Shown in pieces: positions 6,691 through 60,110 of a DNA stretch of 60,110 nt. Position 1 is the first letter of the stretch. Each line of letters starts with the position of its first letter. Source of the DNA: a virus (taxonomy: Duplodnaviria; Caudoviricetes); IMG/VR virus record IMGVR_UViG_3300014656_000003, positions 1 to 60,110 of that record; one strand, written 5' to 3'. Made by a program: the position numbers and the translations under genes. Under the pieces are notes generated by a model that was not told where the DNA came from, searched no databases, and saw nothing but the letters and a program-made list of their open reading frames with translations.

Positions 6691-6782
6691 TTTTCCGAAG
6701 TACAAGTTGAGCAATTTTGAAAAGTGTGAAGGGGGACGAGGGGAAAAAAGCAAAAAAAAATAAAACCCGGGTCTGATTGATC

Positions 6783-23353: not shown

Positions 23354-23981
23354 GGTATTTTACTTCCCCTGTCACATCATCCCGGTACCTCTCTTCCAGG
23401 TCTTTGATGGCATCCGTCAACCCATCCTTATCCATCCGGAGATACATGGCTGTCATGAGGGCCTGGTCGTGAAAGTTGATGACTTCTGTCCGGCCGGGTG
23501 GGACCTTTCCGACATTCCATTTGCTTTTGGATTGATATCCTCCGTTATTGTGCCAGAACCTCCCGAGTCGCCAGTAGGCCCATGTTCGGAACAAAAGCCA
23601 GATAAAGGCCACAATGGCCAGGACTATCATGGAAATGGTCATGGCCCGGTCCCAACCGAGCACCACGTATTTCACAAACGCCACGATGGCCAGGACCTCC
23701 GCCATCGTGGTAATCTTGAAGCTCTGGACAATAGCCAGGCCCTGGTGATACCAGTATTCCCAGGCAGTAAATTTATCGATCGCCCTTTTTCTGCTCAGCT
23801 TCGGAACCTTTCCCCTGATCCGCTCACGCAGTTTGTCTCTTGCCAACTTTAGCCCCCTTTGCCTGTACGATAATATCGACATAATCCAGATGTTTTTCGA
23901 CCCGCTTCTTGCCCAGGATGGCCATGTTGTCCCAGGGCAGGAGGTCCAGTGCCTGGTTATATGCCGCGTTGGCCAGCACAT
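23343..23981 (-). CDS. Membrane protein; true start probably near 23840-23880
   Basis: Two TM segments; the track's 5' extension overlaps the upstream gene. Confidence 0.55.
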   Translation of the reverse strand: MCWPTRHITRHWTSCPGTTWPSWARSGSKNIWIMSILSYRQRGLKLARDKLRERIRGKVPKLSRKRAIDKFTAWEYWYHQGLAIVQSFKITTMAEVLAIVAFVKYVVLGWDRAMTISMIVLAIVAFIWLLFRTWAYWRLGRFWHNNGGYQSKSKWNVGKVPPGRTEVINFHDQALMTAMYLRMDKDGLTDAIKDLEERYRDDVTGEVKYHGY

Positions 23982-25625: not shown

Positions 25626-25668
25626 GTTTAGCCTCCCTGTATAGGAAACGGCCTGTCGTCCTTCAATG

Positions 25669-25699
<31 letters not shown>

Positions 25700-25881
25700 A
25701 ATCCCTTTCTCCCATCATGCCGCCTCACCTGCACCCATGACATCCCGAACACTGCCTGCAAACGATTTTCTTCTCACCCAGGATAATCTCCAAAGGAAAT
25801 CTCATGGTCTCATTTTTCTTCAGCATGGGCTTTTCATACCTCACCTTCTCACCTTCTCACCTTCTCATCTTCTAATCCCTT

Positions 25882-31800: not shown

Positions 31801-34800
31801 TTTCTCATTTAATTCAACAGCATCTCCCCTTGATACCGCCAGCTTGGTCTCCTCACCGACTACGACTTCGCCCGGCTCACCACCCTCCGTAGGGTCCCGC
31901 CTGGGCGGGATGCCCGCCGCCTGGGGCCTCACCGCCGGCATAGTCTCGCCGGCTCTCCCCTCGGCTTCGGGGGCGGGCGGTTCGGTGGGCTTTCTTTCCT
32001 CAATAAGTTCCTTTGTTCCCTTTAATGTTTTTGGTAATTTCTGGCCTGTAAATTCCTCAAATACCGTTCTTGATATCTTATTTGAGGGATCTAACAGGTC
32101 CGTCCATATACCATTGTTTATTGCATCAAGTAGCCCTTTTGCGTTTTTCATTGCGACGGCAAATGGCATATGTTTATCGGCGACATTTGCAATCTCAACA
32201 TATCTTTCTGCTATCCGGTTAGGGCTTATATCCTCCCCCCCCTTTGCAGGGGTGGCTTGCTCAGGGACCTTGGCAGGGGCCTTCTCCGGCTCCGTGACCG
32301 CCTTGCCCTTGAATAAATCAGGGTACTCGGCTTTGACTGCATCGGGGATTACGGAAGCGTCTTTCGCGGCCTGGGCTTTGACAGACGCCCGGTGCTGCCT
32401 ATGTTGTGTTGAAACAGTCTTTTTCACTATTTTTCCACGAGTGCCGGCCGGATCGTCAAAAAAGTGAAACAAGTCATCAGTAACCGGATCAGGATCACCA
32501 TATTTTTCAGCGAATGAACGCCATTGCTTGAGTGTTATCAAGCCTTCTCTTCTACCAATCTTCTCGTTTTTCTTGACGATAGATTGCAATGCCTTCCATT
32601 GTTTTTCACGGGCTTTAACCTCGGGATCTTCTAAATCCCTAAACATAGTTTCATATTCACTGGCCATCATTTCCCATGACTCTTTGGCTTTGGTGGCCTT
32701 CTCCTTCCCCGCCTCCAGCCTCTCGCCTCTAGCCTCTCCCCCCGTCCTCTTCCCCGTAATCGTCTCAACACCTTTTTTTTTGGGCTTCTCGGTGGCCTTT
32801 TTAACCTCTGGGGTGGGTCCTGTTCGATAAAAGTCATTAAATCTTTGTGTGGCCCTCTCAGCAGCATCCTTGGCTTTTTTATATATCTCATTGGATACTT
32901 TCAACCCCTTCTTTTTCCTATATTCTAAAGCCGAAAGTTCACTTGTTCTTTTCTTGAAGTCACGCCTTATATATTGTTCTTTTTCGTATTCCGTTTTCTG
33001 TTCTTTTTGTTTTTCAACTTCTACTTCATGCTCTTCTAAAAACTCTTTACCTTTTGCGAAATCAACCCATCTAAGGGAATCCGGCTTTTTTGTGTCTGAT
33101 TTTTGGTAAAGCCATCCTTTAACGATGTTTTGAAGTTCTTTAACGTCAACATTTGTAGGGTGGTCTAAAATAGTTCCGTCTTTGTGTACCTGTCTTACCG
33201 TCCAACCATCTCTACCGCTTTTCATAACGATCGGAACTATATCAATCTTGTCTATCCCCTTTTCCTCCATCATTTTAGACAGTGCGAATTTTTCAATATC
33301 ATTAAGACTATCAAGCAGAGTTTCAGCTTTGGACATTGCCTTCTCCTTCCCCGCCTCCAGCCTCTCGCCTCTAGCCTCTCCCCCCGTCCTCTTCCCCGTA
33401 ATCGTCGCGACGCCTCGGGGTTTTCCCTTCCTGAGCTCAAGAACCTGCTCTTTGCCGTCCTTCCCGCTGAACACCACGGAATTAAACGTGATTTCCTTTC
33501 CCTCGAAGGTGCTGTCTCCTATATATTTTTTGCCCTCTCCCTTCTTGACATAGGCGATGGTGAGGTGGGGACGGTAAACCGGATGGGTGTCCGTAACCTC
33601 AATTTTTTCGCTGATCAATTTATTGAGGGCATGGAGTTCAGGACCATCAATGTCCACCTTGACGACATCGGCCTCGTCATTTTCAAAGACAGATACCTTG
33701 CCGAGCGTAGCTTTGATCGGGCCCTGACCTTCAAGTATAGGCTTCAGATCCTCCGGGTCAACGGTATGAAGGCCGTATTTTACCGTAATATGGGGACTTT
33801 CCACTCTCCCCGAATCCGGGTCTTCCGGATCTATATAAAGCTCTTCATCCGGGATCTTTTTCCCGAAATCTAATACCGGCTTCGCCTCCGTTTCCGGTAG
33901 ATTCACCTGGGTCGAGCTATATTTATGGGCCTGGGGCTTTATCTGATCCTCTGTTTTCTCAGCTTCTCCACCTTCTATCCCTTCGGTGGGAACCCCCTGC
34001 TCCTTTCCCAGGGGAGCAGGGGGTTTAGTGGTGGGCGCCTCCGTCTCCTTGCCTAAGGGAGTGGAAGGCGTTTCGGTAGGTGTCGGGGTTGTTTCTATCC
34101 TTTCTTCTTCGCCGCCTTCGCGGCCTCGACCTGCCTCAATCTCTCGTTCGCTTCCTTCTCGGTCTTGTAGGGTCCTCCCAGGCGCCGCCGTTTCCCCGTG
34201 ATCGGGCTCTTCTTCTCCGCGTACACGTGCCACCCGTCCTTCTTTTGCCGCATCATCCGCTGCCTCCTCCCTGGCCGCCATAGCTTCAGCGGTGGTGAAT
34301 TCTTCTCTTACCCTCTGATCTTCTGTTTTCTCACCTTCTTCCGCCCTAAGCGCCTCCAGGTCCGCCCTGGCCGCCTCATCCTCCCGGCTGATCTCATCGA
34401 GCATCGTTTCGGCCCTGCCGCGGGCCGCCGCGGCCCGGCGCTTTTCGTCTTTTTCGAGCTCCTCGCGGTCCCGGGCTCCGGCCGTAGCGATATCCCCGGT
34501 TCCGTGCGTGGAGGAGGCCATCGGCTGCCGGCTCTCTTTGTCCTTCCTGCCCTCTCTTACCCTCTGATCTTCTTCCCCTCTTATCTTCTGATCTTCCGTC
34601 CCTTCGCCCTGCGCGAATACCCCGCCTACGCCTCCACCTAACACCGTTCCGATGATCCCCGATTCGACGATCCGACCAACGTTCTCCCTGAAGCCCTGCT
34701 CCGGCTTATGCCCCAGGCTTTCTACATAGATGCTGACCGCCTCCTGGGCCATCTCGGTGCCGCCCTCTGTAAGGGCCTGGCGCACGATTTTTTTGATAAT

Positions 34801-35445
34801 CCGGTGAGCTCCGGTGCTTTTAAGAAATAAGGTGTCAAAAGGCAGGATTTCCAGGATTCCGTTTGCTATACCGATCGTGATTCCTTCCAAGGTGGCCGTC
34901 TGCTCGGTCGTAACCGGATCCCAGCCCTCCCGGATCATCTCATCCTTGGCCTCGCTGTATGCCGCGCCCGCCTCCACGGTCGCAGCTCCGCCAAAGGCGC
35001 CCGCCAGTGAGACCGTCCTTATGGCTTTTTCGCCCCATCCGGCGAGCCTGGCCGCTCTCATGGCGCCCAGGCCCGGGAGCATCATGGCGGCCATGGTGGG
35101 AGTGTTCTCGCCCAGGGACCTTACCCACCATCTCCAGTCCAGCAATCGTTCCGGATGTTCGACAACGGTCCCTTCGGCCAGGTACGCCGGCCGCCGCAAA
35201 GACGGACTCTCTCCCAGATCCCGGTAATACTCCCGGGTAGTTGCCCCGCCGGGGATCCCGGCCATCTCCATGGTACCGCCGATGGACTCCATGGTGGATG
35301 CGGCACCGGCCCCCAGGGCGGAGCCCACTTCCTCCAGCGGGCCCCTGGGGTCTTCGGGTTCTTTTGCTCCAGGAAGGATGGTGGCGCCTGGAGGCCCGCC
35401 TTCCGAAAGCCAGCGATCGAAATCTTCCTGGGTTTTTAATCGCAT
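25882..35445 (-). CDS. Giant polyvalent (probably ejected) virion protein: 2H phosphoesterase, PRTase, zincin, ADP-ribosyltransferase, intein
   Basis: PHITVKYGL/PHLTIAYVK; VVVDDIFTSGGS; HEAFH; FKAWFDESKVVDEKGDPLVVYHGT...GYDG...EIVAFYPNQIKS; last of the ejection-gene cluster. Confidence 0.85.
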   Translation of the reverse strand: MRLKTQEDFDRWLSEGGPPGATILPGAKEPEDPRGPLEEVGSALGAGAASTMESIGGTMEMAGIPGGATTREYYRDLGESPSLRRPAYLAEGTVVEHPERLLDWRWWVRSLGENTPTMAAMMLPGLGAMRAARLAGWGEKAIRTVSLAGAFGGAATVEAGAAYSEAKDEMIREGWDPVTTEQTATLEGITIGIANGILEILPFDTLFLKSTGAHRIIKKIVRQALTEGGTEMAQEAVSIYVESLGHKPEQGFRENVGRIVESGIIGTVLGGGVGGVFAQGEGTEDQKIRGEEDQRVREGRKDKESRQPMASSTHGTGDIATAGARDREELEKDEKRRAAAARGRAETMLDEISREDEAARADLEALRAEEGEKTEDQRVREEFTTAEAMAAREEAADDAAKEGRVARVRGEEEPDHGETAAPGRTLQDREGSEREIEAGRGREGGEEERIETTPTPTETPSTPLGKETEAPTTKPPAPLGKEQGVPTEGIEGGEAEKTEDQIKPQAHKYSSTQVNLPETEAKPVLDFGKKIPDEELYIDPEDPDSGRVESPHITVKYGLHTVDPEDLKPILEGQGPIKATLGKVSVFENDEADVVKVDIDGPELHALNKLISEKIEVTDTHPVYRPHLTIAYVKKGEGKKYIGDSTFEGKEITFNSVVFSGKDGKEQVLELRKGKPRGVATITGKRTGGEARGERLEAGKEKAMSKAETLLDSLNDIEKFALSKMMEEKGIDKIDIVPIVMKSGRDGWTVRQVHKDGTILDHPTNVDVKELQNIVKGWLYQKSDTKKPDSLRWVDFAKGKEFLEEHEVEVEKQKEQKTEYEKEQYIRRDFKKRTSELSALEYRKKKGLKVSNEIYKKAKDAAERATQRFNDFYRTGPTPEVKKATEKPKKKGVETITGKRTGGEARGERLEAGKEKATKAKESWEMMASEYETMFRDLEDPEVKAREKQWKALQSIVKKNEKIGRREGLITLKQWRSFAEKYGDPDPVTDDLFHFFDDPAGTRGKIVKKTVSTQHRQHRASVKAQAAKDASVIPDAVKAEYPDLFKGKAVTEPEKAPAKVPEQATPAKGGEDISPNRIAERYVEIANVADKHMPFAVAMKNAKGLLDAINNGIWTDLLDPSNKISRTVFEEFTGQKLPKTLKGTKELIEERKPTEPPAPEAEGRAGETMPAVRPQAAGIPPRRDPTEGGEPGEVVVGEETKLAVSRGDAVELNEKGIVERVKVDRTLIKEDEDWIAGKEKGDRAAADRFADKFWADKKTEKLKEQLDSPGNTVFIAQPSTTRMNVHPLSLAEKLAKDLGGEYVRGDDYYTAAHEEASKDIPKYKRAFYPRDYEPRNLEELKGITEGKEVVVVDDIFTSGGSVAAFIRTLNGAGIDVKTVVGYMGDARLKVDRATQTALGKALKNAGIKDIRAKDLAGLLTRTEARDIIRTINNAGTENARQKITRDLQGLLDRGAQGDVRSDQHRRQPERGTPREDSRHGRLAEGVQAHPAVPGETALSAYPLAVQGEQPSQLSPKQIKNIVKIARKVREWLKAAGLPAEVIARIDVELKAIIDISGKDVSKTTEQWAEQGISLDTILGATTFRNYRGLLELALSVQSLGELERTTYHEAFHVAARWILPEADYAKLIKYFKTEEKAADAFSSFVAGRKVSPIGGHPGPIRAILLKLRRLLKIIRNGLNGMGFTRPEDIFGKIAVDAYRPHFGQAEGTGVSLQALTDLKRQGNFKAWFDESKVVDEKGDPLVVYHGTPAKFNVFKKYGIRDRGFYSSGYFLTKDPVYAKLYTTSIKTGKLTKSGRVMALYASIENPFDFDNVTGKDFDKLWVATDQIRKNKGLEPNSKERYGSYKDAFLNAKGSILSTPAYERATLGLTSRETLELAGYDGAFANNKQEIVAFYPNQIKSIFNTGTWSPETGDIRLAVKQAEGTGVSLQQAYAPQAWLNVAKQPVGEEVSRELAENRSFVNKIFEMKDLALNRVKTEVAKLQEEVQGMAGQPSRRKFVLGFAHNRELKRSMASDQLDRAMMVWRDLQNKPEKEQEFRDWAEGQLEDQKTPARDKIKIKGQLKLLNQAVNLKDEQKKFTEKMGGLFEAAHAVAKQAKIIKSHMDNYVRRIWTLPEGKEEDFKSSGSGYGFKTYTTAAKQRTLDTILDGWMNGYELKVQGITNSYGQYMEDLAGIMANKAFVQRGVATMGLDGNSMFSATEHEGYGQLKASGFQVWRWAGKAVAEADLPDQEALAITAYGRKFFATPPERIPERWAVYKDNADQRAARLFDSEKEANEWAKDQGYDRIERRPPEDVSEFFEKAPLYAPRPIAEMINKMTASGDMFGEVPVLKGLLRLNASMKAWVLLSSLFHHMAGSRSWIFGVHHGWKGWNPVSAYKAGLDKIRERHALVELGVKNGLTLGDLQDWSERALGEQKGFAERLVNYFGLEKAGKVIEYGRFNRERFTDSLFKKFFAGLKAEAFVMEYGHELQKANEKYTKGVIKAPPDTGKIAEKVARLINADFGGLHLGRMGRNPSLQKWFRILLLAPDWCCDFQTRAMTKAGWKYHHELETNDEIMAFDPETQKLKWSKLKDKYVNKNYAGKMIRIKNFSRSVMLTPDHTCYVYNSTTKRNDIVKAKDLQTNHQIPRCADFDFPEKETYTDYFVKLCGWLVTDGYVKKSYNKLADGSTKEYRYGRITQSKPRTVEMLKNLGITYHVDDTNCDHDKFKANYKKHVFNIPNGLFQKMQDIGLEDGLNWEFLSKLTKRQIKLLDDTMMLGCGTGQNRFSGKEKIVFYMTLIRTMQGLPSTFYQQEENCWRTRWITRGKGISCWGHHDNKDEVDYSGTIWCPSVDTGFWLAERKGLIFITGNTESNFRTVSGWIPGLNDKISRFMGDVPGPKGMEKIYRKFWGRVVFRIAVSTVLAQMLLNGWDETEEFINEQMLSNRFNKKRWTEVDVTKLYNMLGIDTEGRRKTFSIGGHFFDPLKLMDPWRLIKGKGSPVVRVAGAFVSGSDWADRPFTGAAELLTTGKTIKKSTHLPKEGAITRAPATIVNQVVNMQPIQIGHFIQYLQGEEDGLTALMQSAGAQTHTAWPPRLETPILEAEGKKADPAFDMIEKMLKAGDLSMGPPSRYMTVGGITQRMTRGQYAKYLNDSSSIVRRKLERRMKADNWEQFSPEKRAKIIRKVILNARKRVRSRIKKSTARGMEEAA
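26905..27861 (-). mobile_element. Intein (319 aa) with probably degenerate LAGLIDADG domain
   Basis: APDW|CCDFQTRAMTKAGW...LTPDH...GWLVTDG...YSGTIWCPSVDTGFWLAERKGLIFITGN|T; AT-rich island. Confidence 0.9.
29659..30336. repeat. 30-bp direct repeats (29659-29688, 30307-30336) flanking the ART domain
   Basis: CTGAAGGCTTACACCCGTCCCTTCCGCCTG, identical; encodes QAEGTGVSLQ. Confidence 0.9.
32696..33406. repeat. 69-bp direct repeats (32696-32764, 33338-33406) flanking an AT-rich module
   Basis: Identical copies encoding TITGKRTGGEARGERLEAGKEKA. Confidence 0.92.
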
Positions 35446-38635: not shown

Positions 38636-38717
38636 CTATTTCCCCTTTTTTCTCATTCGATGTTGAATGTTCGATGTTGAATGTTCATCTTTTATTTTCC
38701 CTTCCAATCTTCAATAT

Positions 38718-39773
38718 TCAATCTTCAATATTCAATTTAAGCGCCTCTTCCCACCTGCGCCTGAGTGTAAAATTATCCCTCGTAAAGAGGGCTATTTTTA
38801 CAAAAGCCAGAAAACCCGCGATATGACAGAGGGTTAGAAAAAATATCGCCGTAAACTTACTGGTCCTGTATTGCCGTCGTTGCCGGTTGCCCAGAAACCA
38901 CGCCCCGTAATCCATCAGTCGGTCCACCAGTATCCGCTTGACGCCCCCGCGCCTCGATGCCTTGCTTTTGATGTATGGTACTACCCGTGCCGCGATCGCG
39001 TAATACCCTCTCAGCGTCACCGGGTCCAGAAATGTGTCTCGACAGAACCGGGTGAGATCCACCTCCGGAGAGAACCGATCCGTACACGCCGTAACGATGA
39101 TACAGCCCCCTCCGCCTCCGCCTGCGTCGGACATGCCCGCGGTGTTGTCGTGGAGCCCTGCTTCCATGCCCTCTTCGCTTGACAGCCCCTCCTCCGCTTG
39201 ACTTAATGGAGCCATGCTCATTGCCATCTGATCGTTAAGAGAGGGTTTTCCTTCCGAAATAGGATCACCATAAACAGCCTCACCGATATCCTTTCCGAAA
39301 GCCTGGGCGATGCCTTTCGCAAACCCTAGAGCAGGATTCATCGCCATCAGACCTAGCCCCAAATTCCCGAGAACAGTGCCCACTTGCTCAGTCGTCGCGA
39401 ACGGTCCGGTATTGTCGCCTGGCGGCCCGGGTTCACCGCCTCCCGTCTCTATGCCTTCCGCTGTCTCGCCGGGGACGGGGACTGGGGCAGCATCGGGGAG
39501 ACCCCCCGGGGCTGCATCCGCGTACACGGAGGAAGCCGTTTTTTTCTTTGCGATGTCCGCCAGAGCAGCATCCTGGGTGGCCTGTATTTCGGATTTTTGG
39601 GCATCGAACTCCGAATCTATCCGCTCCGTCTCCTTCCGGATCTCCGCATCCACGGCCCCGGCTGCCCTTGCCGATTGCGTCCGCGCCTTCACGTCCAGTT
39701 CGAGCGGCGCCCTGCCGGTCTTTCCACCTGTAGCCGCATATTGCGATGAACTAAGATCCCTTAAATCAACCAT
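38718..39773 (-). CDS. Probable ejection protein with Gly-linker and CFI-box-CTERM-like C-terminal domain
   Basis: GGGGGGCIIVTAC...EVDLTRFCRD...GYY. Confidence 0.6.
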   Translation of the reverse strand: MVDLRDLSSSQYAATGGKTGRAPLELDVKARTQSARAAGAVDAEIRKETERIDSEFDAQKSEIQATQDAALADIAKKKTASSVYADAAPGGLPDAAPVPVPGETAEGIETGGGEPGPPGDNTGPFATTEQVGTVLGNLGLGLMAMNPALGFAKGIAQAFGKDIGEAVYGDPISEGKPSLNDQMAMSMAPLSQAEEGLSSEEGMEAGLHDNTAGMSDAGGGGGGCIIVTACTDRFSPEVDLTRFCRDTFLDPVTLRGYYAIAARVVPYIKSKASRRGGVKRILVDRLMDYGAWFLGNRQRRQYRTSKFTAIFFLTLCHIAGFLAFVKIALFTRDNFTLRRRWEEALKLNIED

Positions 39774-43619: not shown

Positions 43620-43807
43620 GAATCCCCCATTAAAAAAATCACTGAAAAATTAAGCAGGCCCGCCGCAAACCAGTAAATCGCGCTGCCGTATTTACCGTAT
43701 ATAAACAAAGGGATAGACGCCGCAAAACTCTCAACCATGATGATGATCGGCAATACATCTATAAATTTCTCCATCCCCTGTTTCTTCTCACCTTCTAATC
43801 TTCTCAC
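43616..43807 (-). CDS. Small 2-TM membrane protein
   Basis: Hydrophobic; likely start MEKFID. Confidence 0.55.
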   Translation of the reverse strand: MRRLEGEKKQGMEKFIDVLPIIIMVESFAASIPLFIYGKYGSAIYWFAAGLLNFSVIFLMGDS

Positions 43808-43877
43808 CTTCTCACCCTCTCACCTTCTCACCTTCTCACCTTCTCACCTTCTCACCTTCTAATCTTCTCACCTTCTC
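43782..43877. repeat. 8-mer tandem array (CCTTCTCA)n, about 12 units
   Basis: Directly visible; supplies the stop codon of 43868..44764. Confidence 0.95.
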
Positions 43878-44764: not shown

Positions 44765-44889
44765 TTTCTCACCTTCTCACCTTCTGATTTTCTCACCTTC
44801 TGCCCTTAGCCCCGTCCATTCTTTTACCCTTTTTTTCGTTCGATGTTCGATGTTGGATGTTCGATGTTGGACGTTCATCCCTTTAATCC

Positions 44890-45270: not shown

Positions 45271-45576
45271 TTATCGATGCTGATTTATCAATTGCAACAC
45301 TTCATCCTTTGAGGAAAAACCCTTCCGCATCCACAATGGCTTTGGATTTTTGATTTCCTCCGTCACCAGATCCCCCGTTTTGGCATCGCCACTAATGACG
45401 CGAGTAGCCGAGACATCATCGGTATCGTATATGGATTGCAGCTCTGCCAACGCTCGTTGTTTGTATTGCGGCATGGATAACATATTGACAAAATCCTGTT
45501 TGGCCGCCATGTGTTCCGGGTACGTGAATGCACATAAAATCGGTATAGCTATCAAAATTAGAAAAATTCTATTCAT
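45271..45576 (-). CDS. Hypothetical protein with signal peptide
   Basis: MNRIFLILIAIPILCAFT; AGGAG RBS. Confidence 0.65.
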   Translation of the reverse strand: MNRIFLILIAIPILCAFTYPEHMAAKQDFVNMLSMPQYKQRALAELQSIYDTDDVSATRVISGDAKTGDLVTEEIKNPKPLWMRKGFSSKDEVLQLINQHR

Positions 45577-45586
45577 ACCTTTTCTC

Positions 45587-45883
45587 CTACATAAATGTAA
45601 AATAGCGATCTATCTTTTTGATCGTCGCCAGAAATGGCATCTGATCTTTATAGGTTTCTGCTTGCTTTATTAAAACCGTTGAGCCGGTAAACAATATCCG
45701 CGTTTCGTCATTCATCCGAAACTGAAGCGTCATACAACGTGTGCCCTGTTTATATTTGCTGCTTACCACCTTAAAACCCATCACCATTATCTCACGGTTT
45801 AGCACCTCTGTAATATTGCACTTTGCCCCTTCAAGCGGCCTGTGATCCTTGGCAAAATCACTGAACCGCTTCAGGGTTTCCAT
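45587..45883 (-). CDS. RT-coupled small beta-rich protein (candidate DGR accessory)
   Basis: Overlaps the RT 3' end by 26 nt; alternating beta-strand pattern, unlike the four-helix Avd. Confidence 0.7.
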   Translation of the reverse strand: METLKRFSDFAKDHRPLEGAKCNITEVLNREIMVMGFKVVSSKYKQGTRCMTLQFRMNDETRILFTGSTVLIKQAETYKDQMPFLATIKKIDRYFTFM

Positions 45884-46886
45884 CTCTACAAATCTCCATC
45901 AGGCTATCCAGGCCGAGTGACAGAAACAAATTGTGGCTGTTGGCCCATTTTAGCCATCCAAGTGTCGAGGCAATTGATGATATTATCTGTTCTCTTGATA
46001 TCTTTCCAGCCCAAAAAAGGGACGGGAACAACGCCAAACGTTTTTTTACACGCTTAACAGTGCTCTTTCGAATAAGAATATATCTTGGAAAATGGCGATA
46101 TCCCAAAAAGTCCACCCCCCTGGACACAGGGAAGAGATCACATTTACTTAGAGCGAGTTCCAAATTTTCCGACAGGAACTTTCGGATTTTTTGTGCCAGA
46201 TCGTTGAGATGGCCTTTATCGTTAGAAAAAAGACAGAAATCATCACAATAGCGCACGTAGTCTTTAACCCGCTCATTGTGTTTTATAAATTGATCCAACT
46301 CATTGAGGTAGAGATTCCCGAACCATTGGCTTGTATAATTACCGATTGGGACATTTTTACCGCCTGGGAAAGAATCTATGATATTTTGAATAAGCCATAG
46401 GGTATCCGTACATTTAATCTTTCGTTTCACGATTTCAAAAAGGATATCATGATCAACTGAAGGGTAAAATTTTGAGATATCCATCTTGAGACAATACCTA
46501 TTCCTGCGTACAAACTCCATTGCCCGTTTGCTTCCGGCATGGATACCCCTGCCGATAAGGCAAGCATAGGAATCGGATATAAATAGTTTGCTCCAAATCG
46601 GCTCCAGGACATTCATAAGAGCATGCTGCACAATCCGATCAGGGCTGAATGGCAATTTATAAATAGTTCGCATTTTAGGCTCGTAAATTATTTTCTCTAC
46701 ATAAGATGAGGTCGCAAAGGTTTTATCCAACAATACTTTCCTGATATGAGCCAAATTAACATCAAGATTTGACTCGAATCGTTTCACTTTGTTCTGCCAG
46801 GATTTTCCCTTACGAGCACGCCTATACGCATCATAAAGGTTTTCGATATCCGTGATCCTTTCCCATAGTTTTCCGTGTCGTTTCAT
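45858..46886 (-). CDS. DGR reverse transcriptase (342 aa; likely start MKRHGKL)
   Basis: PKMRTI, DRIVQHA, LKMDISKFYPSVDH, PIGNYTSQWFGNLYL (DGR SQ motif), YVRYCDDF, GVDFLGY; no endonuclease domain. Confidence 0.95.
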   Translation of the reverse strand: MKRHGKLWERITDIENLYDAYRRARKGKSWQNKVKRFESNLDVNLAHIRKVLLDKTFATSSYVEKIIYEPKMRTIYKLPFSPDRIVQHALMNVLEPIWSKLFISDSYACLIGRGIHAGSKRAMEFVRRNRYCLKMDISKFYPSVDHDILFEIVKRKIKCTDTLWLIQNIIDSFPGGKNVPIGNYTSQWFGNLYLNELDQFIKHNERVKDYVRYCDDFCLFSNDKGHLNDLAQKIRKFLSENLELALSKCDLFPVSRGVDFLGYRHFPRYILIRKSTVKRVKKRLALFPSLFWAGKISREQIISSIASTLGWLKWANSHNLFLSLGLDSLMEICRDGNPEAVQ

Positions 46887-47012
46887 GATCTGATGCAGAC
46901 GACGTTCGGGTTTTCCCCTACTAGCCGCCTTCATCCTCCGTTTTGTGTTTTGCCGGACCTTTTGTCCGACAGGGCCGATAGGTCCAGCCAGGAGTTTGCT
47001 CAAACGCCTGTA

Positions 47013-47128
47013 TCCGACTGCCTGCGACTGCCGATATTCGTATTCGTATTCCAGCGATAGTTATTCGCATTACGTGACCGCGAACCGGAATTCGTCCCAT
47101 TATTCCAATTACCGCCTGCATGCAGCTT
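47013..47128 (-). ncRNA. DGR template repeat (TR)
   Basis: Non-coding 116-bp copy of the VR, rich in AAT/AAC triplets; followed by a spacer (46887-47012) before the RT start. Confidence 0.95.
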
Positions 47129-47181
47129 ATGACCTATCAGCCCAAAAATCGCGAACGTTCTACGTCTGCTCGTTTTTCGTG

Positions 47182-48384
47182 CTATAACGGCTCCGACCGC
47201 CCGCGACCGCCGATATTCGCACCCGCAGCCCAGCGATAGACACTCGCAGCACGTGACCGCGAACCGGAATCCGGCCCATTATTCCAATGACCGCCCGCAT
47301 GCAGCTTTATATCACCATATGTGCCTTGTTTATATATCGATCCTTTTGCTCCGGGGAGATCGTAGTATCCCCATATGGGTTCTATGGTGGTCCCTGATGT
47401 TGCCGTTACGGTTCCGGTCTCAGTGTGGTCATGAGCAACCGGCCCGTCAAAACGATAGCCTTGGTCGCGTAGCCATTGCCACATTACACCAGCGGCATCC
47501 TCTACGCCAATATTACTGATCATTCGGCGTCCGGCCGTATCCGAATGCCCTCCGGTCGTGACTGGATCGGCGCTGCCTACGATGTTAGTCTCTTCATTGC
47601 TGCCCGCGGCGATAATTTGAAATTCTCCATCATCCAAAAGCTGCTTTTTGACTGCGGCAAAATCATCAACGAAATCCATCCAGTTGCGGGTATCTGTAAT
47701 TGTGCCGCCGTTTGTGGAGGCAGTAGTAGTACCAGAGCCGGAGGCAAGATAGATATCCACCCAAATGTTGGCCTGATCCGAGTAGACCATCCCTTCCGGA
47801 GATGACCGTGGTCGATGTTTCAGGTCCCAAATTGACGCAGGCAGGATGTCTCCGATTACATAATCTGATAGCGTGTGACCGGCAATTGTGCCAACCGAAG
47901 CACAAAGTAGGTGAAATCCTCCGATCTTTGCCGACGTATCGGCGTTATATGTGCTTGGCCAGGTAGAATTAACAGAGACTACGAAATCCAGGGCATTTGA
48001 GGACGTGACGCCACTGACTGCATATACATAATAATCCGTCCCCTCCGTGGTAGTGCCGGAATCCAGATCTGCAGCCAGACTGACATTCGTATCGGATTTC
48101 AGAATGTATGTTGTGCCGTTGATATTAAAGGGGACCGTTTCGGATCCCTGGACCGTTACTTGGATATGATCGGTTGCGTGCGCCTCAATGAACCGCTTGG
48201 TTTTATCGCTCAAAAACGAAGATACTTTAATAAGGTCATCAGGGAGGACGATATTCCCTATGCGCCGGTTGTCCTGGTGGAGTGTAGGCTTGGCATAGAC
48301 ACTCCCTGCAACCGCTAAAAGGAGCACCAGGATAACGACTGACAGAATAACGACCGGTTTTTTTAAGCGCATGGATTTCATCAC
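47182..48384 (-). CDS. DGR target protein, Mtd-like C-type-lectin fold, with N-terminal signal peptide
   Basis: IWVDIYLAS, ISNIGVEDAAGVMWQW, AGGHW...SGSRSR...IGGRGRSEP; the VR occupies the 3' end. Confidence 0.9.
   Translation of the reverse strand: MMKSMRLKKPVVILSVVILVLLLAVAGSVYAKPTLHQDNRRIGNIVLPDDLIKVSSFLSDKTKRFIEAHATDHIQVTVQGSETVPFNINGTTYILKSDTNVSLAADLDSGTTTEGTDYYVYAVSGVTSSNALDFVVSVNSTWPSTYNADTSAKIGGFHLLCASVGTIAGHTLSDYVIGDILPASIWDLKHRPRSSPEGMVYSDQANIWVDIYLASGSGTTTASTNGGTITDTRNWMDFVDDFAAVKKQLLDDGEFQIIAAGSNEETNIVGSADPVTTGGHSDTAGRRMISNIGVEDAAGVMWQWLRDQGYRFDGPVAHDHTETGTVTATSGTTIEPIWGYYDLPGAKGSIYKQGTYGDIKLHAGGHWNNGPDSGSRSRAASVYRWAAGANIGGRGRSEPL
47192..47307 (-). repeat. DGR variable repeat (VR)
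   Basis: 116-bp gapless alignment to the TR with 18 mismatches, all at TR adenines (13 A>G, 4 A>C, 1 A>T). Confidence 0.96.
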
Positions 48385-48385
48385 A

Positions 48386-48865
48386 TCAGCCTCCTATTTT
48401 ATAGAGTACGACGTAGGCCGTGGCCGCGGAACTGCCCTCATCCAGAACGGTGTTGAAATACTTAACCTCGTCCGCCTCGTCCAGAAAAATCAGATCTCCT
48501 TCGTCGAGTACCGCCCCATTGTTTCGCTCCGCCAGGCTGTAGAGTTTAAACCGGGCGGTATCACCCTGCAGAAATATGGCGGCCATGACGGCCAGGGGGC
48601 TGACGGCGGACATGATCTGGGTGGTTGTGGTGCCGATCACCAGGTCTTCGTCGGCCAGGATCGTCAGCCTGCCGTCATATGCCGCGGCCTTGGCCGAAGG
48701 GATCATGAACTTGATATTCTGCGGCTGCAGGAATTTCGGGACCCTTTTAATTGACGACTTGTTCGCTGTTTGTCTGGTGGGTTGTTTCCCGGAATAATGA
48801 AGCAGACTGACCCCCGCAAAAAAAATGATACAAAGCGCTGAAATTAAATAATTTCTCTTTTTCAT
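48386..48865 (-). CDS. Hypothetical protein with N-terminal signal/anchor
   Basis: MKKRNYLISALCIIFFAGVSLL. Confidence 0.7.
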   Translation of the reverse strand: MKKRNYLISALCIIFFAGVSLLHYSGKQPTRQTANKSSIKRVPKFLQPQNIKFMIPSAKAAAYDGRLTILADEDLVIGTTTTQIMSAVSPLAVMAAIFLQGDTARFKLYSLAERNNGAVLDEGDLIFLDEADEVKYFNTVLDEGSSAATAYVVLYKIGG

Positions 48866-48887
48866 CTCATCCTCCCGTTCCTGGTTT

Positions 48888-49247
48888 TCATGGTGTTTCT
48901 GTCACTCCCGATTCAAAATCTACCCCCCAATCAGCAGTCACATCTTCTATTTCCTCTGCTGTTAATTTTACCGCATCTCTGGCCGATTCCACCTCGACAA
49001 TGGCAGTGGCTTTCAACTCGGTAATATCCATCTTTAAAATGATAAAACCATCCCCTCGATCTATCCAGGCTTTAATATTCTTTTTTTCTCTAACCACACA
49101 GGCAGGATATTTATCAGGGTCGTGGATTCCGGCGAATTGATCTATACCTCTTCTATTCATACGCCCCTCAATAGAGAGTAGTTTTTTACCTGTCGCCGGG
49201 TCATAATATCCAAGGCCAGGTCGTTTCCTGAATCTTATATATTCCAT
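48888..49247 (-). CDS. Hypothetical protein (possible fibre chaperone)
   Basis: Follows 49256..50113; AT-rich. Confidence 0.55.
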   Translation of the reverse strand: MEYIRFRKRPGLGYYDPATGKKLLSIEGRMNRRGIDQFAGIHDPDKYPACVVREKKNIKAWIDRGDGFIILKMDITELKATAIVEVESARDAVKLTAEEIEDVTADWGVDFESGVTETP

Positions 49248-49255
49248 TTATTCCC

Positions 49256-50113
49256 TCAAGCAGCGATCAAGCAGTCTTCTGATACAATCATATAGTATGC
49301 TTTGGCAGTTATGCCATTAGCATTATTTTGCGAAAAAACATCATTATCAAGCCAGGGATTATGAATAGGAGAAAATGCCTGCAATGTATCGTATATTTTA
49401 TTAGCATCAAAATCACTTTCTTTTGTGGGCTGCCCATGCGCACCCGATCCAGTAGTCGTTACAAATCCATATTTAATATTTCCACTACTCCTTCTCCAAA
49501 TTGCCAGCCAAATGTTACCTGTTGTAACGATTGTATCGACTGTGAAAGAACTCACGGAGTTAGTAAATAACTCAAGAGTGTTGTTAGTATGTACCATAAA
49601 CTGGAAATCAACAGCATCTCCATCTGCGAAATCAAAAACGAAATCATCAACACCGGCTACCTGATTTTGTAGATCTGCAAGCTTAATTATGATTGACCAG
49701 CTGGTTCCGGTAATTAAATTCTGGTAGTTAGATGTAACACTATACATATCATTGTCGGTGATCTGACGATAAGGTGGGTCTCCTACGGCCCCAACGATTG
49801 CACCGCTTTCCGTGAATGTAAGATCAGCGCCGGTTAATCCCGCTCCGGTCGAGTAGTCATCATCGCCTACACCTGAAGCATCGAATAAACAGATGTTCGT
49901 ATTCGCTTGAGAATCGGTCCAACCTTCCTGATCCGTTCCAAGCCATGCAGAGTAAGAGGCGGCGGCGGCAGCAGCACCACTGGTAATGACAGCGGGTAGT
50001 ATCCCCCAACCTCTGGCGTCCTCAATAGCTCCCATGCCAAGGCAAGCAACCCCAGCATAGCCACCAATCTGGAAACAGTTTTTTAGAAATTCTCTGCGTG
50101 TTCTATCTTTCAT
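49256..50113 (-). CDS. Tat-signal protein with beta-sandwich (LamG-like?) domain
   Basis: MKDRTRREFLK matches the twin-arginine consensus. Confidence 0.7.
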   Translation of the reverse strand: MKDRTRREFLKNCFQIGGYAGVACLGMGAIEDARGWGILPAVITSGAAAAAASYSAWLGTDQEGWTDSQANTNICLFDASGVGDDDYSTGAGLTGADLTFTESGAIVGAVGDPPYRQITDNDMYSVTSNYQNLITGTSWSIIIKLADLQNQVAGVDDFVFDFADGDAVDFQFMVHTNNTLELFTNSVSSFTVDTIVTTGNIWLAIWRRSSGNIKYGFVTTTGSGAHGQPTKESDFDANKIYDTLQAFSPIHNPWLDNDVFSQNNANGITAKAYYMIVSEDCLIAA

Positions 50114-51075
50114 TAGTTTATCGACACGTAAGAAACTGTCCCCTCCTCGTATATGCGCAAGACGTTATCTGCTACAGCCTTGAAAGTAAAAGATCCCGCG
50201 CCCGTTGTTCCACTCAATTTTATGGCGCTTGCTCCGCTGCCAGTCACAAAGCCCGGTTTGTTTATAATTGTATCGGCGGCATTAACAACATACCAAATTG
50301 TCGACCCGGATGTTTGATCCTGATCAAGGCTGACGTTATATGTCATCCCTTTTATGGCGGGTAATCCCCATAAAGTCACCTCAGATATAGCGCCATAATT
50401 ACCGATAAAAGCCCCCCCGGTCATTTCACGAGTCAATGTCTGCGAGGTGGTGATATTATAAATACTCACGCCCGCGACGATTGGTTGAACGGTAGAAACC
50501 CCTGATGTCACAGGATCCGGCAGTTGCGCGTTAGTTGCCTGCCCGGTAAGGTCGGTGAAGGGCAAGGACCCGGAGAAAGATCCGGTTATATCCGTGGCGC
50601 CCATTTTGCCCGTGACATCGAATTTGTAGCCGTCCCTGGGTTCCCCCCCAAAACCGTACCCGGTTGCACTGCTCGCGTCGTCTCGCCAACCGTCATAGAA
50701 AGGGCCTTTGGTGGCATTGACCCCGAAGATGCTGTCACCGCTCCCGAAGATAATTCGATAGGGTCCTGCTATGATGCTGCCGTAATAATAAAGGCTCGCC
50801 CCGCTGTGGACCGAGATCCCGGAGCCCGGCGTGAAGGTGATCTGGGTATTAGGGCTGACAGTGACCGAGTTTCCCGAGGGGATATTCTGGATGTCCGTTA
50901 TCAGGAGGTTGGCGTCATTCGCGCCCACGGCCGTGACGGCGCCTATAAACCCTCCGTATCCGTTCACATTCCTGGCGGGCTCGTGGATACTCCTGCCCGA
51001 GGCAGAGCCGAAGTAAAACACACCGACGATGCAGAGGATAACGAAAAGGAAATAAGCCTTTAAAACTCTACCCAT
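50113..51075 (-). CDS. Tail-fibre-like G/S/T-rich protein with Sec signal peptide
   Basis: MGRVLKAYFLFVILCIVGVFYFGSASG; IIAGPYRIIFGSG tailspike-like segment. Confidence 0.65.
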   Translation of the reverse strand: MGRVLKAYFLFVILCIVGVFYFGSASGRSIHEPARNVNGYGGFIGAVTAVGANDANLLITDIQNIPSGNSVTVSPNTQITFTPGSGISVHSGASLYYYGSIIAGPYRIIFGSGDSIFGVNATKGPFYDGWRDDASSATGYGFGGEPRDGYKFDVTGKMGATDITGSFSGSLPFTDLTGQATNAQLPDPVTSGVSTVQPIVAGVSIYNITTSQTLTREMTGGAFIGNYGAISEVTLWGLPAIKGMTYNVSLDQDQTSGSTIWYVVNAADTIINKPGFVTGSGASAIKLSGTTGAGSFTFKAVADNVLRIYEEGTVSYVSIN

Positions 51076-51467
51076 AGCGCACCTCCATTTGAGTGTAGCG
51101 TAACGGACTCGTACTGGCCCGATAGAATAATGGACGCTTGCCCTTCGATCGTGTCACTCCCGGCACACTGTATCGTGACCCTTCCCGTACCGATGTTGCA
51201 GATCTTTTCTGTCCAGGCGTTCGACGCGGGCGCGAGGGTGATCGTGAGGGTGCCGCTCGCAAAGACCTTTTCTCCGTCCTGGTCGATGGTATAGTCCGAT
51301 GTCTGCGTCGATGTGGGTCCTTTGAGGTTCTGGACCGTGATCTTCTTTGTCTGGGATGCGCTGACATCCACAATGGGGAGGACGTCGTTGTCCGCCGGCG
51401 TGGTCATGGCCGTCATACCTGATATCTTGACGCTCATAAAGCCTCTCCTTTTTACGCTTTGCGCCAT
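51060..51467 (-). CDS. Small tail-fibre-related protein (likely start MSVKISGM at 51437)
   Basis: KISGM...ADNDVLPIVD...TKKIT and DTIEG...ESVTLHSNG..W patterns. Confidence 0.65.
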   Translation of the reverse strand: MAQSVKRRGFMSVKISGMTAMTTPADNDVLPIVDVSASQTKKITVQNLKGPTSTQTSDYTIDQDGEKVFASGTLTITLAPASNAWTEKICNIGTGRVTIQCAGSDTIEGQASIILSGQYESVTLHSNGGALWVEF

Positions 51468-51485
51468 GCCCTATGCGCTATGCGA

Positions 51486-53096: not shown

Positions 53097-53180
53097 TGCG
53101 CCATGCGCCATGCGCCATGCGCCATGCGCCATGCGCCATGCGCCATGCGCCATGCGCCATGTGCCATGTGCCATGCGCTA
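53097..53180. repeat. 7-mer tandem array (TGCGCCA)9(TGTGCCA)2(TGCGCTA)
   Basis: Directly visible; on the sense strand it begins at the stop codon of 53178..53687. Confidence 0.95.
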
Positions 53181-53687
53181 TGTCGTTGCCTGAAGCGCCG
53201 ACAGGTTCGCTCGGGTCTCCGGACGGTACCTGACAAGCAGGTGCGGCCATATATGGCCGGCCTCTCCTGCACCGTTCGGTGCGGTTACGCACTCGACAAC
53301 CACTTCCATACCGGGCTCAAGAGTAACGCCCATACCTACAAGATCATAGGCCACATCGCCTGCCGCGCTCACGCCTGTTACACCCAGGTTGATGTCGGCA
53401 ACATCCCCGTCGGCACGCCCCGTGTCGGACCCTGAAGTGAAACGCCGGTCAAACTTGATCTCGGCGGTACCTAAAGTGCCGCCCGCCAACCCCTCGGTAA
53501 TCTCTACCATCGCCAGGACCACATCGCACTTAAAGGGGACCTTAAAGACCCCCATATCCCCGGCGACGTGGCCTGCAATATCGAGCCCCAGGGCGTCCCT
53601 TGTGGTCCCCGCAACCATATGGTCGCCGGATTCAACAGATACACCCGCAAAGGGATGAAATTCTAACACAGCCGGATTAAGTTCCAT
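53178..53687 (-). CDS. Probable capsid decoration protein
   Basis: Beta-rich, directly after the major capsid gene; strong RBS. Confidence 0.6.
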   Translation of the reverse strand: MELNPAVLEFHPFAGVSVESGDHMVAGTTRDALGLDIAGHVAGDMGVFKVPFKCDVVLAMVEITEGLAGGTLGTAEIKFDRRFTSGSDTGRADGDVADINLGVTGVSAAGDVAYDLVGMGVTLEPGMEVVVECVTAPNGAGEAGHIWPHLLVRYRPETRANLSALQATT

Positions 53688-53714
53688 TATTTGTTCCTCC
53701 TTATTTTTTATTAT

Positions 53715-53800
53715 CTAATCTTCTTACCTTCTCACCTTCTTACCCTCTCACCTTCTAACCTTCTAACCTTCTAACCTTCTAACCTTCTAACCTTCTTCCT
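53715..53800. repeat. 8-mer tandem array (CCTTCTAA/CCTTCTCA)n
   Basis: Directly after the major capsid stop codon. Confidence 0.93.
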
Positions 53801-58643: not shown

Positions 58644-60110
58644 TCACCCGGGTACCCCGAATCCCGTTGTAATATTCATCCCCGCTGCAGGACGACGGCT
58701 GTAGTTTCCGCCGCCGTAGCTCCGTGCCCGCTTCCTCTGGGCCTCGACGAGCTTTTTATAGTCGCTCGTTTTTTGCTCTTTATAGGGCATCAACACACAA
58801 ATCCCGTTTGCAAAGGCGTCCCCGACGTGGCTGTGTATGTTTTTCACCGGCAAGCTCCCCGTAATATTGCCGTTAACATCGACCTTGTAGTGCCACCCGC
58901 CCCTGAGCGACCGGTTGAGTTTGGTCGCGGATCTCGATAGGATGATGGAGGGGATCCCGCCGTTGAGGAGAGACTTGAAGCACCGGCTGATGGACTGGGT
59001 CATGCTGTGCCAGTGTGCCGGCCCTCCCTCGAACCGGGCGTCGTATTTCTTCCCTATGATCGTGGCTGTGCTTCGCCTGGACGTGCTCTGGTTCGGATTG
59101 AGCATGGTTCGATCCCCGATAATTCGCCAGGACGTAGCCTTATTCTTGTATTTAGGGGTATTGAGGAGGATATCGAGGTGTTCTTCCATGATCTCCTCCG
59201 GCCCTTTGCCCGGCTCGTGTAAAACGTCGTGGATGACGAGCTGGCCCTGGGGGGTGTACTGTGCCAGGATGCAGCTCGCATTCGTCCAGCTATCCCACAT
59301 CGCGATGAGCTGGCCCTTAAAAACAGGCAGGATCTTTTTTGAAAAATGAACCTGTGGAGAATACCCCGGGATCACCGGCCGGCCTTCGCTTACCGTGGCC
59401 GTCTCGCCCAGGACATATCTCTGATACTTCGCCTCATCTCCCTTAAAGGCAGCCATGTTGGCCGCCCTGGCAATGGGGCTCAGGTATTTGTTCTCTCCCC
59501 TGGGGATCCAAAAGGTGTCCTTGGTAATGGTGACCCACTCGCCCGTACCGGGGTCCTGCATCGTCAGGTAATCGTGGGGTTCGTCGGCGAGCTCCGCCGT
59601 CCAGTGCTCGTCGTCCGACGGATTCTGTGAAATCTGGACCCGCGGGACCGTATCTCTCTGCCGGGCCGCCCTGGCCAGCGCCATCCGGAAGACGCCGATA
59701 GGGAGTCCCGCGTTGGTCTTTTCATAGATCGGTGCAGGCTCCTCGAGCCAGACCAAGGCGTACTGTGGACCCTGGAGTTTGGATATGGCCCGCTCGTCGT
59801 CGATCCCGAAAAGGTCGAGGGATACCTTGGGTTTACTATTGATGACGATCTGCTTTCCGCCGTCCCTGAGAGTCATCCATCCATCCGCGAAATACTCCTG
59901 GAGGTCAGGCAGGGTAGAAGTCTTTATGTTCTGGAAGGTATCCCGGATCAATGCGGACCGGATATCGCACTCGCATCGCTGGGCGTGAGCCGCTAAGCCG
60001 ACGGCCCCCGCGTAGGTATTATGCGTAACCGTAAAATCTCCGAGGAGAAAACGATGATTGCCATCCAATACAAAGCCGAAATATTCGCCTTCTCCAATAT
60101 GAACGATCTC
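58644..60110 (-). CDS. terL: Terminase large subunit, 3' part
   Basis: After intein: TYAG...LIRDTFQNI, Walker B VWLEE, SQNP coupling motif; nuclease MWD, IIGD, SHVGDAF. Confidence 0.93.
   Translation of the reverse strand, partial: EIVHIGEGEYFGFVLDGNHRFLLGDFTVTHNTYAGAVGLAAHAQRCECDIRSALIRDTFQNIKTSTLPDLQEYFADGWMTLRDGGKQIVINSKPKVSLDLFGIDDERAISKLQGPQYALVWLEEPAPIYEKTNAGLPIGVFRMALARAARQRDTVPRVQISQNPSDDEHWTAELADEPHDYLTMQDPGTGEWVTITKDTFWIPRGENKYLSPIARAANMAAFKGDEAKYQRYVLGETATVSEGRPVIPGYSPQVHFSKKILPVFKGQLIAMWDSWTNASCILAQYTPQGQLVIHDVLHEPGKGPEEIMEEHLDILLNTPKYKNKATSWRIIGDRTMLNPNQSTSRRSTATIIGKKYDARFEGGPAHWHSMTQSISRCFKSLLNGGIPSIILSRSATKLNRSLRGGWHYKVDVNGNITGSLPVKNIHSHVGDAFANGICVLMPYKEQKTSDYKKLVEAQRKRARSYGGGNYSRRPAAGMNITTGFGVPG
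59988..60110. repeat. Terminal direct repeat, copy 2
   Basis: Identical to 1-123. Confidence 0.97.

Follow-up and report, generated by a model that had tools for sequence, protein, structure and literature searches.

Export leaders on an optional set of lectin-like proteins, including the target of a diversity-generating retroelement, in the late operon of a temperate phage

Introduction

Why would a tailed phage place export signals on proteins of the kind from which tail fibers are built? The question is raised by a block of genes at positions 45271-51467 of the − strand of the virus genome IMGVR_UViG_3300014656_000003, a complete record that spans 60,110 bp and has direct terminal repeats, the whole of which was analyzed and is hereafter called the window. 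The block contains a diversity-generating retroelement (DGR) whose target resembles Mtd of phage BPP-1, and five of its open reading frames (ORFs), that of the target included, begin with sequences reminiscent of Sec (general secretion) or Tat (twin-arginine translocation) signals. Mtd is assembled on tail fibers in the cytoplasm, and we know of no precedent for a tailed phage that arms its virions with proteins after their export. A first-pass annotation had labeled the block a tail-fiber module. The analysis reported here favors another reading, namely that an optional set of phage lectins, of which one is DGR-diversified and accompanied by a partner, is exported through Sec and Tat and acts in the envelope late in infection; judged from the sequences, this reading is probable, if with considerable room for doubt.

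Translated leaders clustered in the late operon

Leaders were sought with a heuristic that calls for a basic n-region, an uncharged stretch that begins within 20 residues and runs for at least 12, and a best 10-residue Kyte-Doolittle mean of at least 2.3. Four proteins of the block were flagged: one of 320 amino acids (aa; 50113..51075), with a Sec-type leader at about residues 1-27; one of 159 aa (48386..48865), hydrophobic at residues 5-26; the DGR target of 400 aa (47182..48384), with a leader of about 30 residues; and one of 101 aa (45271..45576), with a 17-residue hydrophobic leader. Each has one to four basic residues followed by a strongly hydrophobic, uncharged stretch of 17-22 residues. 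In a fifth protein, of 285 aa (49256..50113), the motif TRREFLK at residues 5-11 precedes an uncharged, Gly/Ala-rich stretch of 19 residues. The observation of the first-pass annotation that these five − strand ORFs start like signal peptides therefore holds, by the heuristic for four of them and by the motif for the 285-aa protein.

The anatomy of these leaders resembles that of export signals. The n- and h-regions of a Sec-type signal are present in the four flagged proteins, with plausible cleavage sites by eye, such as V-x-A before a lysine in the target; the h-regions are long (17-22 residues). Inspection of the five leaders by eye revealed neither a lipobox nor a class III (pilin-type) signal. 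In the 320-aa protein, the 101-aa protein and the target, the n-side is more basic than the C-terminal flank. The 20 residues that follow the hydrophobic stretch of the 159-aa protein include six lysines or arginines.

Such leaders are concentrated in the block. The heuristic flagged 4 of the 10 called ORFs of positions 45271-51470 (one of the ten being a spurious ORF over the template repeat of the DGR) vs. 4 of 76 elsewhere in the genome (Fisher one-sided p=0.005). Applied to other genomes, it flagged 22 of 529 genes (4.2%) in a set of 50 further DGR-bearing viral loci and, in relatives of the window phage, 21 of 280 genes (7.5%). A search of the N-termini of the 86 called proteins for the pattern [ST]RRxF[LI]K returned TRREFLK of the 285-aa protein as its sole match.

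The start sites of these genes are equally telling. Strong Shine-Dalgarno-like sequences stand 5-8 nt before the leader-including starts of all five genes but the 285-aa gene, whose ATG overlaps the stop of the preceding gene. No ATG is present at the positions where homologs begin, and the sole internal methionine of the 101-aa protein (residue 23), if used as a start, would remove a YP motif that is conserved in its family. The upstream genes end at, or a few bases from, the starts of the leader-bearing genes, so that the leaders are not untranslated spacers. They are translated and non-random, and the possibility named at the outset, that the true starts might lie downstream of the hydrophobic segments, is not borne out.

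The DGR and its target

The DGR itself is genuine, as had been proposed from the sequence. Its template repeat (TR, 47013..47128) and its variable repeat (VR, 47192..47307, at the 3′ end of the target gene) are 116-nt repeats of 84% identity on the − strand, and every one of their 18 differences falls at a TR adenine. The product of the adjacent reverse transcriptase (RT) gene (45858..47003, − strand) matches Pfam RVT_1 (E 6.4e-20) and phrog_1423 (E 5e-127); the ORF was called from a TTG, and comparison with the N-terminus of the vir525 RT points to an internal methionine near 46883 as the likely start. Overlapping the RT stop is the gene of a leaderless 98-aa accessory protein (45587..45883, − strand), whose family (phrog_19665, function unassigned) gave tblastn matches downstream of the RT or of the target in 27 loci. 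No ORF of the cassette had a Pfam match to an Avd-like protein; Avd is not universal among DGRs.

The target is a full-length Mtd-like protein to which a leader has been added. It matches Pfam mtd_2nd at residues 71-187 (E 2.6e-23) and phrog_11262, the profile of its family matches solved BPP-1 Mtd residues 69-376 (1YU0-1YU4/2IOU; E 6e-24), and tblastn aligns it with BPP-1 Mtd at 25.7% identity over residues 50-377. Mtd-type cassettes without an Avd-like gene are also found in the loci L001-L052 of our comparison. Directly behind the RT they encode a conserved protein of about 95 residues (matches in 27 loci); a second conserved protein, about 85 residues long and in most cases encoded just ahead of the target, was found in 25 loci.

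Homologs of the target seldom carry a leader. Only one of 50 IMG/VR homologs does (locus L019), and the common leaderless form begins at about residue 39 of the window protein. An exhaustive search yielded 980 matches at E ≤0.001; among the best 150 representatives examined, 11 had clear leaders, all in long multidomain forms, a twelfth flag being a false positive, and no match aligned to the first 42 residues of the query. The window target nonetheless retains the N-terminal region that leaderless homologs have. In a tree of 115 target bodies, the window is the sole leader-bearing row of a well-supported 39-row clade. The leader label requires at least six changes on this tree and one 9-row clade has seven leader-bearing rows, from which it follows that leaders were gained repeatedly and kept.

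Unpaired cysteines are expected to be avoided in proteins moved to the oxidizing periplasm, and the cysteine content of the target departs from that of its family in this direction. Its body has one cysteine vs. a median of 7 in 133 leaderless representatives, only 1 of which has one or fewer; the median is 4 in the 11 leader-bearing representatives (Mann-Whitney p=0.005). The family motif G-C-E-D-C-C reads G-V-E-D-A-A in the window target, and the first cysteine of this motif is present in every motif-matching member of the target's own clade. Across the family, that cysteine is kept in 44 of 59 leaderless vs. 1 of 9 leader-bearing representatives (p=0.0005). Taken together, four mature leader-bearing proteins of the block contain 1 cysteine in 879 residues (the mature 320-aa protein has none) vs. 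60 in 6409 in the other late proteins (p=0.002).

Leader-bearing proteins were also seen beside or within the DGR cassettes of other uncultured phages, in L019, L036 (3971-5668), L021 (7928-11388) and L041 (5571-6005). In L019, the target (5704-6888) and the product of the next gene (7294-8376) have near-identical leaders.

The 101-aa protein as a predicted partner of the target

The 101-aa protein consists of its leader and a conserved body of about 84 residues. Members of its family adjoin the target immediately upstream in most cassettes, and none of its 26 homologous ORFs, found in 25 loci, has a leader. In all but one of these 26, the start lies two or three residues ahead of the conserved YP motif, which in the window protein follows the 17-residue leader.

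When the target and the 101-aa protein were modeled together in their mature forms, complex prediction pointed to binding, with a score of 0.84 vs. 0.00 for the best of three controls; the mark set for this score is reached by 58 of 80 solved complexes and by 2 of 110 mismatched pairs. Contact agreement between runs was at least 95% and the partner was modeled with a predicted local distance difference test (pLDDT) score of at least 88. No solved relative of the 101-aa protein was found, so that the score does not stem from a known complex. The predicted contacts of the partner include target residues in the VR region. Since both proteins carry leaders and are predicted to bind each other, it would be as a binding pair that they gained these leaders together. 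In each of them, the leader is a precise N-terminal addition to a complete protein, a pattern that speaks for a gained function and against an artifact; if cleaved, the leaders of the two would free proteins of nearly ancestral length.

Lectin-like neighbors of the cassette

Leaders in the block have contrasting histories. The expectation that homologs would share them is borne out for the 320-aa and 285-aa families. It fails for the 101-aa protein and the target, whose homologs lack one in nearly every case. In the 320-aa family, 16 of 17 homologs have a leader, mostly of a short classical type and in many cases ending in A-x-A, and the seventeenth looks N-terminally truncated. The AlphaFold2 (AF2) model of the 320-aa protein is poor (pLDDT 57.6), with a helix at residues 2-25, strands at 55-111 and disorder at 114-203; it suggests a short β-helix-like N-domain, a disordered linker and a C-terminal β-sandwich. 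Its Atlas matches scored at most 0.80 and are leads only.

The 285-aa family keeps RR-x-F-L in 18 of 19 homologs. Conservation in this family peaks over the first 40 or so residues, the bodies being 27-40% identical except in one 68% relative, and in P0038 the same type of N-terminus sits on a different LamG body. The AF2 model of the window protein (pLDDT 86) folds residues 6-35 into two helices (pLDDT 71-86) and, beyond the Gly/Ala-rich linker, the body into a confident ConA/LamG jelly roll. In a Foldseek search, the best solved neighbor of this body was the tailspike of cyanopodophage Pan3, followed by sialic-acid-binding CBM40 and legume lectins, together with many viral LamG proteins. With the Mtd-like target, this jelly roll bears out the first impression that the bodies in the block are fiber- or lectin-like. 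Single-protein searches of IMG/VR found no relatives of the 320-aa and 285-aa proteins; an alignment query retrieved one locus there (L067) and none in genome_contigs.

The remaining proteins of the block are less informative. The 159-aa protein, in which the hydrophobic segment is followed by a basic linker and a small viral-type domain, had no sequence homologs in our searches; its residues 49-159 resemble viral proteins of 101-112 aa in Atlas (TM 0.53-0.56, a lead only), and it is weakly similar (E 0.009) to a protein encoded upstream of the target in vir525. A leaderless 119-aa protein (48888..49247, − strand) without any family match is encoded between the 285-aa and 159-aa genes, and its homolog in L067 (54% identity over 26 residues, E ~1e-5) also follows the 285-aa homolog. 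The first gene of the block (51060..51467, − strand) encodes a leaderless 135-aa protein that matches neither Pfam nor PHROG and has homologs only in the relatives L053, L062, L066 and L054. The gene that follows it encodes a leader-bearing protein in L053, L062 and L066, and in L054 the 135-aa homolog itself has a leader.

A variable slot for leader-bearing cargo

Comparison with related phages shows that the block is optional: it is cargo that fills a variable slot flanked by the head genes and an adaptor gene, and the label of tail-fiber module had to be abandoned. Both flanks of the slot are visible in ten loci, window included, and two truncated loci were considered besides. The slot is empty in three of the ten (L056, L057 and L059). 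Among the seven filled slots, five (window, L062, L065, L066 and L068) encode at least one leader-bearing protein; the near-identical pair L063/L064 has one large leaderless protein instead. The N-terminus of the 589-aa protein in the slot of L062 shares 34% identity with that of the 320-aa protein; the slot of L065 encodes four consecutive leader-bearing proteins out of four, one of them a polysaccharide lyase. In both truncated loci, L053 and L054, a leader-bearing protein occupies the slot. Elsewhere in L062, a 113-aa ORF upstream of the portal gene (2246-2587) combines a canonical twin-arginine motif with a hydrophobic region and is a candidate gene.

The distant phage L067 offers a different arrangement. 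There, the 285-aa homolog, the 119-aa homolog and a protein sharing the C-domain of the 320-aa protein are again neighbors. The same locus encodes tandem SU10-adaptor-like paralogs, of which the first (4815-5507, E 2.9e-7) is leaderless and the second (5507-6187, E 3.9e-17) has a canonical leader, as well as a 920-aa homolog of a 1060-aa late protein of the window, in which a signal peptide replaces the first ~236 residues.

Within the window, the block has a GC content of 0.38-0.47 vs. 0.55-0.62 in its flanks, which suggests a foreign origin. Its genes overlap or are spaced 8-22 nt apart, and a promoter and terminator scan did not rise above shuffled sequence (13 promoter-like sites vs. 11.1 expected, 10 terminator-like sites vs. 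9.4). The block is probably co-transcribed with the late genes.

The virus genome and its host

All late genes of the window lie on the − strand, in the order of terminase, portal, scaffold, capsid (Phage_capsid_4), four small conserved genes and the block, beyond which come a 99-aa gene, a 298-aa gene with a weak SU10-adaptor match (E 0.022, below the cut-off) and the gene of the conserved 1060-aa LamG protein. This last protein, which may be the core fiber, lies outside the block. An intein with Hint and LAGLIDADG domains interrupts the large terminase gene (1-1155 and 58644-60110), which continues across the record ends.

The + strand carries genes for a tyrosine integrase and a CI-like repressor, and the window also encodes a bacterial-type DnaA, an Amidase_2 endolysin and a Wzy_C-like membrane protein. 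This combination indicates a temperate phage of a peptidoglycan-bearing bacterium. The major capsid protein is 67% identical to that of one relative, which is located on a contig of a Desulfosarcina metagenome-assembled genome (MAG). The closest phage-database match of the DGR target belongs to a virus annotated with a Methanosarcinales host; an archaeal host for the window phage was considered and rejected on account of the endolysin, the bacterial DnaA, Wzy_C and the relative on the Desulfosarcina MAG contig. The myovirus-like L001 (BK063673.1), annotated with a Methanosarcinales host, has a cassette of the same type without leaders, in the order 127-aa protein, target, RT, 95-aa protein and 82-aa protein, and its target is 56% identical to that of the window. 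Either cassettes of this type pass between viruses that differ greatly, or the host assigned to L001 needs checking.

Several other features of the window deserve mention. A 536-aa Wzy_C/O-antigen-ligase-like membrane protein (23824-25434) adjoins the lysis genes and is a candidate for surface-polysaccharide conversion. A 3187-aa polyvalent protein (25882-35445) combines ART-PolyVal, 2′-5′ RNA ligase-like and phosphoribosyltransferase domains. In the early region, a 186-aa protein (3822-4382) has a classical lipoprotein-type leader, the sole lipobox-like leader seen in the genome. Many intergenic gaps are filled by tandem arrays of heptamers or octamers, for example TTCTCACC (13.5 copies), CTTCTCAC (11.8 copies), TGCGCCA (12.3 copies) and TCTAACCT (10.4 copies). 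Such arrays lie at 18095-18202, 43784-43877, 44766-44801, 44838-44876, 53097-53182, 53714-53796, 25662-25702 and 38656-38736, and two of them flank the variable slot beside the adaptor gene.

Envelope, virion or membrane anchor?

The favored reading can be stated as a series of steps. The block would have been acquired horizontally, as cargo, into a variable slot of the late operon of a temperate phage infecting a Gram-negative-type bacterium. The cassette is of an ordinary phage tail-fiber type, made of the partner, the Mtd-like target, TR, RT and the 98-aa accessory protein; in the window lineage, target and predicted partner each gained a leader, and the target shed its cysteines, as expected on a move to an oxidizing compartment. 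The 320-aa protein, the target and the 101-aa protein would cross the cytoplasmic membrane by their Sec-type leaders, with the 159-aa protein uncertain, and the 285-aa lectin would cross it by its Tat leader. Proteins that cross this membrane would act in the envelope of the infected cell, as cleaved, soluble products or held in place by a leader that stays uncleaved, and would not be added to virions in the cytoplasm. The leaders, with their conservation in some families and their gain by one lineage in others, the loss of cysteines, the variable slot and the lectin folds are established by the comparisons above. Both the export and the role of these proteins are what we infer from their sequences, and the role can only be guessed at: late-expressed binding of carbohydrates or receptors, with receptor masking, exclusion of other phages or matrix binding as examples, the DGR retuning one of the binders.

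A bolder extension of this scheme seems to us tentative and on balance improbable. Tailed phages may have repeatedly turned cytoplasmic fibers into Sec/Tat-exported ones, and in the window a whole set (DGR tip and partner, Tat lectin and spike-like protein) would mature outside the cytoplasm, then either arm particles at lysis or form a hypervariable layer in the envelope, possibly for adaptive exclusion or receptor masking.

A number of observations, among them those on which the two more serious alternatives draw, weigh against export to the envelope. The leader-bearing target of L019 keeps its cysteines, and the association between cysteine loss and leaders may be partly phylogenetic. The target was modeled as a monomer, and the 101-aa partner may in the predicted complex occupy what is an interface of the trimer. 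Moreover, the block bears no mark of separately expressed morons, since it belongs to the late operon, is tightly packed and has no promoter or terminator above shuffled sequence.

The first alternative is that exported fibers and lectins, including the DGR tip with its partner, mature in the periplasm and dock on finished particles when lysis mixes the compartments. The bodies are virion folds (Mtd-like for the target, LamG with a podophage tailspike as best PDB match for the 285-aa protein), and their genes stand among the structural genes of the late operon, translationally coupled. Wherever the next gene is visible (window, L053, L062 and L066), a leader-bearing protein follows the leaderless 135-aa protein. 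In L067, canonical leaders are found on an SU10-adaptor-like paralog and on the 1060-aa homolog, and since these derive from core virion proteins, exported proteins may still end up on particles. That homolog, however, has lost its first ~236 residues, where docking would be expected. The N-terminal region of the target cuts both ways: it is kept, yet it is far more diverged (15-42% identity) than the body (53-66%). In addition, the block is dispensable, being absent from three relatives. A search of the full-text literature, the scope of which did not extend to subscription journals, found no title or abstract describing a virion fiber of a tailed phage with a Sec or Tat signal. On this evidence arming of the virion is unlikely, and our preference for proteins that work in the envelope and form no part of the virion is only moderate.

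According to the second alternative, the N-termini are uncleaved anchors, or in the case of the 285-aa protein a docking module, and the proteins are held at the inner membrane, possibly with cytoplasmic bodies, for assembly, lysis timing or exclusion. With 17-22 residues, the uncharged stretches are long enough for an uncleaved anchor that spans the membrane. In the 159-aa protein, the basic flank makes the topology ambiguous and would suit an N-out, C-in orientation. In the 285-aa family, the exact Tat consensus TRREFLK read by the first-pass annotation stands as a motif, but the curated Tat profiles do not endorse it: TIGR01409 matched 1 of 20 members at a non-significant E of 0.069, and TAT_signal was not among the eight weak Pfam families matched, in a setting (HMMER filters) where short profiles such as Tat-signal hidden Markov models perform weakly. 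Judged on its sequence, an N-terminus that is unusually conserved, swapped between bodies and modeled as two helices may fit a phage docking domain as much as a signal. Conversely, the seven-residue Tat consensus is kept across that family, the short classical leaders of the 320-aa homologs end in A-x-A, and the N-terminal side is the more basic one in the 320-aa protein, the target and the 101-aa protein. Depletion of cysteines in the mature parts would also be unexpected for cytoplasmic bodies. We regard membrane tethering without export as quite unlikely.

Finally, an annotation artifact, with true starts downstream of the hydrophobic segments or segments arisen by chance, could appeal to the leaderless homologs of the target and of the 101-aa protein and is nevertheless largely refuted, and very improbable, in view of the start sites, the conservation of leaders in two families and the clustering described above.

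Relation to known systems

Among known systems, the cassette is closest to the Mtd/DGR system of BPP-1, with which it shares the Mtd second domain and C-terminal variable lectin fold, adenine-only TR/VR differences, a DGR-type RT and a location in a phage late region. Unlike Mtd, the window target starts with a leader of about 30 residues and is nearly devoid of cysteines, and in place of a detected Avd-like gene the cassette has the conserved 98-aa and 101-aa proteins.

Exported DGR variable proteins are known from cells, as exemplified by Legionella LdtA and Treponema TvpA. Parts of a recent preprint describe pilus-tip targets, adhesins of Bacteroides, with signal sequences and lipoboxes (10.1101/2024.11.15.621889). 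Like the window target, LdtA, TvpA and the type V pilus tips of Bacteroides are DGR-diversified binders of C-type-lectin fold with an N-terminal export signal. They differ from it in being lipoproteins or pilins of cells or of integrative and conjugative elements; the window leaders have no lipobox, and body and cassette are of the Mtd type, in the late operon of a complete phage.

Another parallel is found in the mosaic adhesive trimer (MAT) fibers of Bdellovibrio, which portions of Caulton 2024 (PMC10769870) describe as phage-fiber-like, provided with signal peptides and displayed outside the cytoplasm, one tip being a variant C-type-lectin fold. As far as those portions go, MAT fibers have a conserved β-rich N-domain of about 130 residues after the signal, and they differ from the window proteins in being products of cellular genes of the predator and in involving no DGR.

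Phage genes with export signals located beside or inside structural modules are familiar from T5 Llp, lambda Lom and Bor, and Cor, which act in the envelope in receptor blocking, exclusion or lysogenic conversion. Those products, lipoproteins or outer-membrane proteins of small size, bear no relation to virion folds, whereas the window proteins are derivatives of virion-type lectins and fibers, one of them hypervariable, with no promoter or terminator of their own detected.

Concluding remarks

Exported DGR targets in cells and phage-fiber-like exported adhesins in Bdellovibrio are thus already known. What sets the window apart is an Mtd-type cassette in a complete phage whose target and predicted partner both carry leaders, next to a lectin with a Tat-type leader. 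According to the accessible text of two surveys, phage DGR proteins are without detectable transmembrane regions or signal peptides, unlike surface-displayed bacterial DGR proteins (Benler 2018; PMC6199706), and most cellular target clusters have a transmembrane domain or signal peptide at the N-terminus (Roux 2021; PMC8144416); their supplements (Additional file 10 and Supplementary Data 5, respectively) may list exceptions. As far as these texts go, the published division between signal-free phage targets and exported cellular targets is crossed by the window phage.

In related phages, this slot is occupied by different cargo that also bears leaders. Should export prove true, phages would use DGRs to diversify something besides the receptor-binding tip of the virion, and a class of late-expressed phage envelope lectins, one of them Tat-dependent, would be in need of a function.

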